A stretch of 56,588 nt of DNA from positions 1 through 56,588 of the forward strand of contig WJMN01000054.1 of the NCBI GenBank assembly GCA_014727925.1, written 5' to 3'. The position numbers and the translations under genes are program-made. Below are positions 1,616 through 34,691 of the stretch, one piece after another; position 1 is the stretch's first letter; each line of letters begins with the position of its first letter. The notes under the pieces were generated by a model. That model was not told the origin of the DNA, did no database searches, and was given only the letters and a program-made list of their open reading frames with translations. This DNA is from Candidatus Micrarchaeota archaeon (GTDB lineage Archaea > Micrarchaeota > Micrarchaeia > Anstonellales > Bilamarchaeaceae).

Positions 1616-2266
1616 TTATTTTTTCCTGAGCACAAGAAACAGGTGGCTTTTCTCATAGGGTTCCAGGGCCACCTCCTCAATCAGCTCAAGCTCTGAAGAA
1701 ATCTCTTCTTTTACCTGGGCATATGTCTCTTCGGGGCTCTGGGTAACATCAATGCTCTGGGACTTGATTGCAATCATCGCATATCCCCCTTTTCTCAGGA
1801 ACATCCTGCTGTTTTTTAGGAGAATGTCTGCCTGTTCCGGAGAGGCAACATCCTCATATATTACATCCACCTTCCCGATCTCCTGGTAATTTTTTGGCTG
1901 GCGGGCATCTGCAAGAATGGGAATAACATTCTCTCTTTTTTCGCAGAAGCGCAGGAGAAACTTCATAGAATGGGCAGATATCTCCACTGCATATATCCCT
2001 CCGTCCGTAAGTACATCAGAGATGTGGGAAGGGGTTGTTCCGGTGGAAGCCCCGAGGTATAGGATTTCTGAATCATGTTTTATCGGATTGTTCTTCAGGC
2101 CGTTTTTTATGGCTGCGCAGAGTTTGCTGCGGCGGGGGTTCCATGCCCGGTATTCTTTTCCATTGATGTTGAGCAGGCGTTCCCCATAAACCTGCTTTCC
2201 TGGCACCCTGTTTCTGGTCAAGATTCTGCCTTCGTGCTCAAAGACATTTTCAAAAATTTCTTTCAT
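1616..2266 (-). CDS. flpA: Fibrillarin-like rRNA/tRNA 2'-O-methyltransferase
   Basis: YGERL, YRAWNPRRSKL, ILYLGASTGTTPSHISD, DARQP motifs. Confidence 0.95.
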   Translation of the reverse strand: MKEIFENVFEHEGRILTRNRVPGKQVYGERLLNINGKEYRAWNPRRSKLCAAIKNGLKNNPIKHDSEILYLGASTGTTPSHISDVLTDGGIYAVEISAHSMKFLLRFCEKRENVIPILADARQPKNYQEIGKVDVIYEDVASPEQADILLKNSRMFLRKGGYAMIAIKSQSIDVTQSPEETYAQVKEEISSELELIEEVALEPYEKSHLFLVLRKK

Positions 2267-33906: not shown

Positions 33907-33972
33907 CTCCATCAGACGCTGTTGGCATCATCATCGATTTCTCTCAGCGGTTGTACATGTCATCATCTGGAG
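33907..33972 (-). ncRNA. Box C/D guide sRNA (66 nt)
   Basis: Minus strand: CUCCA stem, box C AUGAUGA (33966-33960), 12-nt guide, D' CUGA (33947-33944), C' AUGAUGA (33934-33928), 12-nt guide, D CUGA (33915-33912), UGGAG closing stem. Confidence 0.9.
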
Positions 33973-34005
33973 AATTAATTCCCTCAACCCGGGTATAAAA
34001 GGATG

Positions 34006-34077
34006 TGCCTCAGGGCGGATTTGAACCACCGACACCTCGGTCTTCAGCCGAGTGCTCTCCCCCTGAGCTACTGAGGC
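34006..34077 (-). tRNA. tRNA-Phe (GAA), intronless, CCA not encoded
   Basis: Full cloverleaf: GCCUCAG/CUGAGGC acceptor, GCUC/GAGC D stem, CUCGG-CUGAAGA-CCGAG anticodon arm, GGUUCAAAUCC T arm. Confidence 0.97.
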
Positions 34078-34118
34078 AGAATACACTGTAGACTAGTTTT
34101 CTGTATGGAAATGTTTAT

Positions 34119-34691
34119 TTATTTATTCAATTTTAGAAAGTGTTCGTGGAATGCAGTTGAGCCGGACAGTTCCGGATGAAAGGTTGTTGCAAGATAATTT
34201 CCCTGCTGTACTCCCACCGGCATTCCCAGATGTTCTGCAAGCACCGTTAGCCCACCGGAAACAGACTCAATTACCGGCGCCCTTATGAAAATCCCCTCAA
34301 TTGCCCCAAGAGAAGTTTCCAGAGGTGCACAAAATGATTCTAGCTGCCCCCCATATCCATTCCGCACCAGTCCAATGTCCATCAGCCCAAGCGTTTCCTG
34401 GCCCGCAACCCCTCCGGAAATGTTTTTGGAAAGAAGCACTGCGCCTGCACAGGTCCCCATTATGGCCCCAACTCCTCGTACATCTTCAAAAATTCCATTC
34501 TTCCTCAAGAGCAGGGAAAGAGCGGTACTCTCTCCTCCGGGCAACACTATTCCGTCAAGTTCCCTAACCTCTCCCCTGCGTCTTACTTCCAAAATTTCTC
34601 CTTCAAGCCCCAGTTTCTCCATCGCCTTCTTCAGATATTCGATATGCTCTGATACTGCGCCCTGAAGGGCAAGAACCCCGACCTTCATCAT
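34119..34691 (-). CDS. pdxT: PLP synthase glutaminase subunit
   Basis: [41 protein letters not shown]. Confidence 0.95.

Follow-up and report, generated by a model that had tools for sequence, protein, structure and literature searches.

The first uridine of the ribosomal A-loop carries a universally conserved 2′-O-methyl group, which is made in yeast by snR52 together with Spb1 (Um2921) and in bacteria by RlmE/FtsJ (Um2552). The yeast snR52 acts as a C/D guide RNA (PMC7994747), and sRNA-guided methylation of the U2552 equivalent has been predicted in five of six hyperthermophilic archaea (PMC4644070). In the additional file of the latter study (Dennis et al. 2015, BMC Genomics 16:632, PMC4644070), S. 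acidocaldarius sR7 is predicted to target both U2552 and a position at about G2509, and sR204 of one species is predicted to target the U2504 equivalent; the same study gives M. kandleri sR17 as a predicted U2552-equivalent guide (alignment position U2826). We converted the alignment numbers U2826, G2783 and U2778 to E. coli U2552, G2509 and U2504 by using the paper's own pair U2826/C2830 = U2552/C2556, on the assumption that no indels lie between them. According to a published rule, the two guides of a dual-guide sRNA act on sites less than 100 nt apart (PMC7994747).

A second group of described relatives comprises dicistronic genes in which a tRNA is followed directly by a C/D s(no)RNA of the same strand. 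The plant tRNA-Gly-snoR43 gene is reportedly of this kind, as described by Kruszka et al. in 2003. Among archaea, fusions of sRNAs with tRNA-Ser, tRNA-Pro and tRNA-Val are recorded for I. hospitalis, T. tenax and N. equitans (Tripp et al. 2017, cited in PMC7994747).

The locus examined here shares features with both groups. It lies on the minus strand of the window, that is, of the whole 56,588-nt stretch of DNA that was analyzed, which belongs to a 1.0-Mb Micrarchaeota MAG (59 contigs, 88% complete). A tRNA-Phe(GAA) gene (ARAGORN, 34005-34077; Rfam RF00005, 34006-34077, 65.2 bits), which has its discriminator A at 34006 and does not encode CCA, is followed after 32 nt (ARAGORN end) or 33 nt (Rfam end) by a 66-nt box C/D sRNA at 33907-33972 (-), as identified by its sequence, by Rfam alignment, by regular expression and by homologs. 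Read along the minus strand, this RNA begins with CUCCA-G (33972-33967), of which CUCCA is the 5′ strand of a 5-bp terminal stem, and continues with box C (AUGAUGA, 33960-33966), the 12-nt D′ guide CAUGUACAACCG (33948-33959), box D′ (CUGA, 33944-33947), a D′-C′ linker of the short type (GAGAAAUCG, 9 nt, between box D′ at 33944 and box C′ at 33934), box C′ (AUGAUGA, 33928-33934), the 12-nt D guide UGCCAACAGCGU (33916-33927), box D (CUGA, 33912-33915) and the 3′ stem strand UGGAG (33907-33911). Box C, box D and the terminal stem correspond to the K-turn of archaeal box C/D sRNAs, and the internal D′ and C′ boxes come with guides of about 12 nt. The preliminary description had already recognized a C/D sRNA with two 12-nt guides and a 5-bp stem some 33 nt 3′ of tRNA-Phe on the same strand, and ARAGORN, Rfam and the minus-strand reading all agree with it.

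A regular expression for the full C/D′/C′/D series matches four sites in the 1.0-Mb genome, whereas five shuffled genomes have no match; when the terminal stem is also required, 33907-33972 is the sole site left, and the shuffled genomes again yield none. The layout of boxes, guides and stem is not a chance occurrence. The terminal stem also shows compensatory changes in relatives, with CUUCA/UGAAG in one congener (G003) and UUGCA/UGCAA in another (G002). Minimum free energy folding of the sRNA gave z = -0.5; the structure of K-turn RNAs depends on bound protein, so that an uninformative folding energy is to be expected. The Rfam model of Pyrococcus C/D sRNAs (RF00095, snoPyro_CD) aligns with the RNA from end to end with all four boxes in register (28.5 bits, E=7e-4), a score that lies below the gathering score of 45 and does not make it a member of that curated family; the sRNA stays under the gathering threshold of every Rfam family. 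Judged from sequence, the locus is a genuine dual-guide archaeal box C/D sRNA, a known class of RNA, whose expression is predicted.

The proteins that such an RNA would need are all encoded. The gene for fibrillarin, the catalytic subunit of the C/D RNP, lies in the window itself (1616-2266, minus strand; PF01269, 276-277 bits), as the preliminary description had stated, and Nop5 (PF01798, 185 bits, contig C19) and L7Ae (PF01248, 100 bits, contig C12) are found elsewhere in the genome. Homologs of the sRNA occur in all seven other genomes of the genus and across the order, and the D′-guide pattern is present in more than 119 GTDB species, nearly all of them labelled Micrarchaeota, with a few Altiarchaeota and Iainarchaeota. 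Contigs of relatives with this sRNA have been deposited under the names Candidatus Micrarchaeota, Micrarchaeia or Anstonellales. Linkage of the sRNA to tRNA-Phe is confined to the window's genus.

No 23S rRNA gene is assembled in the window's MAG, and the rRNA targets of both guides were read in genomes of the same genus. There, positions 2-11 of the D′ guide pair with the 23S sequence GGGU[U]GUACAU (site GGUUGUACAU) in an uninterrupted run of 10 Watson-Crick pairs, and in the 23S rRNA of each of three congeners (G002, G004 and G005) no site other than the A-loop is as good. Counted from box D′, the fifth nucleotide comes to lie on the first uridine of the A-loop, the equivalent of E. coli U2552. 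With same-genus 23S rRNA, the D′ guide therefore has the pairing expected of a guide: at least 9-10 bp are formed with a stable RNA, and the target is the nucleotide fifth from the D or D′ box.

The strongest evidence for this target comes from variation in the rRNA itself. Whereas the archaeal Rfam consensus of helix 92 is GGc-UGUUC-gCC, with UGUUC invariant, all 13 23S rRNAs of the order read GGGU-UGU(U/A)C-AUCC rather than GGC-UGUUC-GCC. The form in the order is UGGGU-UGUUC-AUCCA, and that in the window's genus (G002, G004, G005 and G007) is UGGGU-UGUAC-AUCCA. Position 8 of the D′ guide co-varies with rRNA position 2555, and the two are concordant in 24 of 25 genomes. A UGUAC loop is accompanied by a guide with GUAC (..UGUACAACC.) in G002, G004, G005, G007, G031, G033, G035, G037 and G038, the last two of which form a separate lineage with helix 92 reading AGGGU-UGUAC-ACCC. 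A UGUUC loop is accompanied by a guide with GAAC (..UGAACAACC.) in 15 genomes, three of them Altiarchaeota. The lone discordant genome (G032) combines a guide of the GUAC type (L102) with a UGUUC loop (L225, G032:C97), and its 23S rRNA is located on a 2-kb contig that may have been mis-binned. The assignment of the D′ guide to the A-loop, with methylation predicted at the U2552 equivalent, is thus well supported, the decisive evidence being this covariation in trans. The 23S rRNA of the window's own species would be expected to contain GGGUUGUACAUC.

The proposal that this sRNA is aimed at U2552 of the 23S A-loop was made in the preliminary description, and both the 10-bp pairing, which exceeds the nine complementary nucleotides demanded there, and the covariation bear it out. 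However, the guide had been misidentified. Under the +5 rule two Um targets had been predicted, of which that of the D′ guide (CGGU[U]GUACAUG) proves to be the lineage's own A-loop, whereas that of the D guide (ACGC[U]GUUGGCA) does not hold at the A-loop and has its best site elsewhere. The earlier assignment made the D guide UGCCAACAGCGU responsible for U2552, allowing for a mismatch at C2556, and left the D′ guide to some other target. It drew on a core, GCUGUU, which the D-guide target has in common with the Rfam consensus GGCUGUUCGCC, the A-loop that is canonical for archaea and bacteria. Yet no helix 92 resembling the canonical GGCUGUUGGC exists in any of the 13 23S rRNAs of the order. 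Because helix 92 is GGGU-UGUAC-AUCC and not GGC-UGUUC-GCC, the D guide lacks a good match there; the A-loop is not among its top 23S sites, and is instead the unique 10-bp site of the D′ guide, with which it co-varies. We reject the assignment from these helix 92 sequences and regard it as extremely improbable.

For the D guide, the best 23S site in the three same-genus rRNAs is 5′-UCGC[U]GUCGGCU-3′ (E. coli 2500-2511), located 48 nt 5′ of the A-loop site. Nine of the 12 positions form Watson-Crick pairs: positions 2-7 and 9-11 are paired, and position 8 opposes C2507 in an A:C mismatch, giving 6 bp, a mismatch and 3 bp. Methylation would be predicted at the U2504 equivalent. This strand is the best fit that we find for the D guide, and the assignment is tentative. 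We consider it roughly an even chance that the guide directs methylation of the U2504 equivalent, a rating that is no higher because the duplex is weak and the mismatch is conserved. Alternatively, the guide might bring about no methylation of U2504 at all, being an orphan or decaying guide or a weak antisense tether with a chaperone role on the 2501-2510 strand. Such orphan guides and chaperone roles are discussed in PMC7994747, and the mismatch at position 8 is retained in 30 of 33 unique family guides. Moreover, pairing is limited to nine of 12 positions, a second mismatch (position 11) is found in one clade, sites with equal scores exist in some genomes, and no better target was found in the window genome's partial 16S rRNA, in the 16S rRNAs of 24 relatives, in the 37 tRNAs or genome-wide. 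Against this stands the constraint on the paired positions over the same 33 guides. Positions 2-7 form Watson-Crick pairs with 23S rRNA in about 97-100% of them, positions 9 and 10, which lie opposite G2508 and G2509, are pyrimidines in all with only C-U exchanges, and 88% of the guides have G at position 11, whereas drift is seen at positions 1 and 12. In the remaining three guides, from three lineages, position 8 is G, which restores the pair with C2507. The D guide also follows its rRNA in that a G at position 4 pairs with a lineage-specific C2503, where the archaeal consensus has A2503; the lineage with the canonical CCGAUGUCGG (A2503 at its center; G037 and G038) carries a different D guide, placed 13 nt upstream at U2491 (10 bp). 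Taking both sides together, we put the reading as an orphan or tether at somewhat less than an even chance.

Other targets for the D guide fare worse. Of the comparison of both 12-mers with the genome's own rRNAs and tRNAs that the preliminary description had proposed, little came: no 23S rRNA is assembled, and neither the partial 16S rRNA nor the 37 tRNAs offers a target. Candidate sites in the tRNA-Asn(GUU) anticodon loop and in D-arms fit poorly, and the best tRNA match, to tRNA-His, has 8 Watson-Crick and 3 G:U pairs with a mismatch at position +5. A transcript other than rRNA could in principle be the true target, as the genome's only 11/12 match to the D guide, which includes a perfect complement of positions 2-11, is found at C48:12184-12195, 49 nt downstream of tRNA-Glu. 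About two 10/10 matches are expected by chance in 2 Mb, though, and the site falls after a T5 run and before a gene's promoter and is not conserved in the homologous region of a congener (G007). We have discarded it as a chance match, and a role as target has hardly any probability.

[quoted passage not shown] The other guide of sR7 is predicted to act on the adjacent peptidyl-transferase strand (alignment position G2783, about G2509), 5 nt from the U2504 site proposed here. In the Altiarchaeota (23S loci L210, L212 and L213; sRNA loci L115, L093 and L124), both guides of the homologous sRNA cover helix 92: the D′ guide is directed at U2552, and the D guide UUGAUGGGCGAG pairs with UUCGCCCAUUAA on the 3′ strand of the helix, with a predicted target at about C2558, so that the two duplexes overlap. 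The second guide of the family always lies within about 60 nt of the A-loop, which fits the dual-guide rule of less than 100 nt and the arrangement of sR7. Nevertheless, there is no detectable sequence homology outside the boxes with sR7 or with other archaeal U2552 guides, and both helix 92 (GGGU-UGUAC-AUCC) and the register of the second guide differ from the sR7 case. The hosts also differ, one being a small-genome DPANN archaeon with very few sRNAs and the other a hyperthermophile with dozens.

The linkage to tRNA-Phe raises the question of how the sRNA is transcribed. The spacer reads GGCA-CAUCC-UUUUAUAC-CCGGGUUGAGGGAAUUAAUU-CUCCAG and contains a TATA-like element, TTTTATAC (33993-34000, minus strand), made up of a T4 run (34000-33997) and of TTTTATA at -34 to -28 from box C, as well as an A/T element, AATTAATT (AAUUAAUU; 33973-33980, minus strand), at -14 to -7 from box C, in a promoter-proximal position beside the predicted start site. 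To learn what precedes this sRNA elsewhere, we aligned 72 non-redundant homologs without tRNA linkage on box C. They share an A/T-only block at -33 to -27 (86-99% A/T, TTTWWAW), purines at -43 and -42, and an A/T patch (76-83%) at -12 to -8, a pattern that is the BRE, TATA and proximal-element geometry of archaeal promoters as far as sequence can tell. TTTTATA in the spacer is therefore predicted to be the TATA box of the sRNA. The element is kept in all members of the genus while the remaining spacer diverges. The spacers of G001, G005 and G007 have T5-T6 followed by ATAC. G003 and G004, whose spacers are longer (59-61 nt between the end of the tRNA and box C), have a T6-T8 run right after the tRNA that is separate from a consensus TTTATATA 23-25 nt before the stem. 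In G002 and G006, tRNA-Phe and the sRNA are 460-700 nt apart, and the sRNA has a TATA of its own. Upstream of tRNA-Phe, a further A/T-rich TATA-like element, AATAAATAAATAAAC (34113-34127, minus strand), is a putative tRNA promoter, and an equivalent ATAAATAAAG precedes tRNA-Phe by about 25 nt in relatives from the genus.

A run of T4 or longer occurs within 20 nt downstream of 18 of the genome's 37 tRNAs, where chance would give, by a rough estimate made without a computed control, well under 10%; these runs are consistent with oligo-T termination, and the T4 run at 34000-33997 is likely to be the terminator of tRNA-Phe. The most likely and most economical reading thus has two transcription units, with one T-rich element serving both as tRNA terminator and as TATA of the sRNA. 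The preliminary description had seen no obvious TATA between the genes, which overlooked TTTTATAC at 34000-33993 with its TTTTATA at the position of the family's TATA, and had proposed a tRNA-Phe/sRNA dicistron, which we now disfavor. Spelled out as a model, the dicistron would have tRNA and sRNA form one obligate precursor that starts at the tRNA promoter, with RNase Z cleavage at the tRNA 3′ end freeing the sRNA. The two genes are indeed on the same strand only 32-33 nt apart, their linkage is kept in six genomes of the genus, and the T run is only T4 here, which makes read-through plausible and some RNase Z processing possible. The predicted start, at about -5 to -3 from box C, counts against our own reading, since the 5-bp stem would be cut short if transcription did not begin a little upstream of the usual place. 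For a dicistron, there are precedents both in those recorded for the three archaea named above and within the family itself, in which a homologous sRNA follows tRNA-Leu(GAG) with box C only 13-15 nt away (L127 and L132), leaving no room for a promoter. However, a dicistron in the sense of two genes with neither promoter nor terminator between them is not what the spacer of the window presents: TTTTATA stands at -34 to -28, at the family's standard distance and together with the proximal A/T element, a T4 run follows the tRNA, and congeners have T5-T8 there. That relatives with longer spacers show terminator and TTTATATA as distinct elements, that the unlinked copies in G002 and G006 retain a TATA, and that half of the genome's tRNAs are followed by T4+ runs likewise argue for separate units, and we judge an obligate dicistron to be unlikely. 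Like the known dicistronic genes, the locus has its sRNA immediately behind a tRNA of the same strand, and it differs from them by the promoter-like TATA and the oligo-T run in its spacer; it is the arrangement behind tRNA-Leu(GAG) that is close-packed.

Whether another enzyme could make Um2552 in this lineage was addressed with the RlmE/FtsJ profile (PF01728), which gave matches in all four archaeal control genomes and only partial matches, of 29.6 bits at most, in 31 genomes of the order. Two matches in the window's own genome (22.8 and 18.5 bits) do not count as RlmE, as they resolve to a generic Methyltransf_25 protein and an RsmB/F protein, and no full-length FtsJ-domain protein exceeded the Pfam cut-off. 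The rlmE homolog that the preliminary description had suggested looking for was thus found neither in this genome, which is represented by a MAG that is 88% complete, nor across the order, where the absence is general. Since no RlmE/FtsJ was found in the order, the sRNA is presumably the only recognizable route to Um2552 in this lineage. Yeast has an enzyme as back-up (Spb1) and bacteria have a stand-alone enzyme; here, with no FtsJ-family enzyme detectable, the guide RNA appears to act alone in making the predicted Um2552.

Our explanation of the locus as a whole, for which we have good though not full confidence, is that of a dual-guide sRNA with its own TATA promoter, whose D′ guide is directed at U2552 and whose D guide is probably directed at the 2501-2510 strand, with expression, methylation, start site and termination all being predictions. 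[quoted passage not shown] The D guide would probably pair with peptidyl-transferase strand 2501-2510, where it would methylate the U2504 equivalent or else, given the one conserved A:C mismatch, merely hold the strand. With both guides paired, the sRNA would tether two domain V segments, 48 nt from each other, while the 50S subunit is assembled. Transcription would most likely start from the TATA promoter in the 32-nt spacer, and the T-rich element there would probably also end transcription of tRNA-Phe. Some transcripts might occasionally read through and then be cut by RNase Z and trimmed, but this would not be required.

Both sRNA-guided Um2552 and tRNA-sRNA linkage are already published, and there is no new mechanism here. 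What is added is an annotated sRNA gene with its predicted target and promoter in a phylum whose non-coding RNAs are essentially unannotated. New aspects are the reassignment of the target to the D′ guide, backed by natural covariation, the evidence that Micrarchaeota lack RlmE and retain this guide among very few C/D sRNAs, and the unusual U2555A and A2503C variants, which may interest ribosome specialists. The covariation of guide and target amounts to a natural experiment that validates the target without wet-lab data. Furthermore, that a DPANN genome of about 1 Mb with only a handful of recognizable C/D sRNAs and without RlmE retains a Um2552 guide underlines the indispensability of this methyl group. 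A more far-reaching idea, which is possible but which we hold to be doubtful, is that in Micrarchaeota and allied DPANN this sRNA is the sole Um2552 machinery and co-evolves with the ribosomal A-site, with the D guide kept not for methylation but as a deliberately weak tether that times the folding of the 2500-2555 region. The sRNA has tracked a change at an otherwise near-invariant A-loop position (U2555A, probably at least two or three times independently) and also matches the lineage-wide A2503C; if the idea were true, it would be a readable "fossil record" of a remodelled catalytic center in DPANN ribosomes.

The rRNAs of this group have several unusual features in their own right. The nucleotide A2503 is normally invariant. 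Throughout the order, the peptidyl-transferase strand reads UACAUCGCUGUCGG in place of the archaeal consensus uACcUCGAUGUCgG (L008:4020-4040, all 23S loci of the order, L006-L016, and Altiarchaeota L210), with A2503 changed to C and C2499 to A; C2503 also occurs in Altiarchaeota. The A-loop sequence UGUAC in place of the near-universal UGUUC (E. coli U2555 to A) is seen at L008:4072-4083 (G002), L010, L011, L050, L215, L218, L219, L211 and L224. Its carriers are the window's genus, a second Micrarchaeota clade (G031, G033 and G035) and a distinct lineage (G037 and G038), and U2555A probably arose at least two or three times independently. A preprint on variation in the archaeal peptidyl-transferase center (bioRxiv 2024.11.12.623245) covers U2554C/U2555C in Thermoprotei and does not mention U2555A. 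The 16S rRNA gene of the window's genome is split over two contig ends (C13:25599-26319 and C46:5298-6169), and its Rfam match has short unaligned gaps at model positions 497-516 and 825-828. No 23S rRNA follows the 16S rRNA on C46, and the rRNA genes therefore appear to be unlinked. In several relatives, the 23S rRNA genes are 3.6-6 kb long, which implies large insertions or introns.

Some further observations concern tRNA genes and their downstream regions. A T run fused to a TATA-like motif also follows tRNA-Pro(CGG) (C22:11173, cttttatat), tRNA-Met (C43:19188, atttttataa) and tRNA-Ser(GGA) (C8:33397, cttttatg), which suggests that elements used both as terminator and as promoter may be widespread in so compact a genome. 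The A-loop sRNA behind tRNA-Leu(GAG), with a spacer of 7-9 nt (L127:~1595-1680 and L132, minus strand), is a real candidate for a dicistronic gene, and in another relative (L123) a tRNA-like 3′ remnant is located upstream of the homologous A-loop sRNA.

The sRNA repertoire of the window's genome is very small compared with that of hyperthermophiles. Only two other strict box C/D candidates were found, both outside the window, at C40:20758-20828 (+) and C6:9860-9916 (+). In the former, all 12 positions of the D guide, GAAACUGGAGCU, are paired (10 Watson-Crick, 2 G:U) at a site somewhere within a 3.9-kb locus of a congener (L066), which comprises the full-length 16S rRNA of G007 and its flanks. 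Among homologs of the A-loop sRNA, the D′-C′ linker ranges from 3 nt to about 40 nt (L021-L024 in the genus, and L095, L099, L101, L106, L112, L129 and L145). Long linkers form a conserved hairpin, by which the internal K-loop would become a K-turn with a helix, an arrangement that is unusual for archaeal sRNAs.
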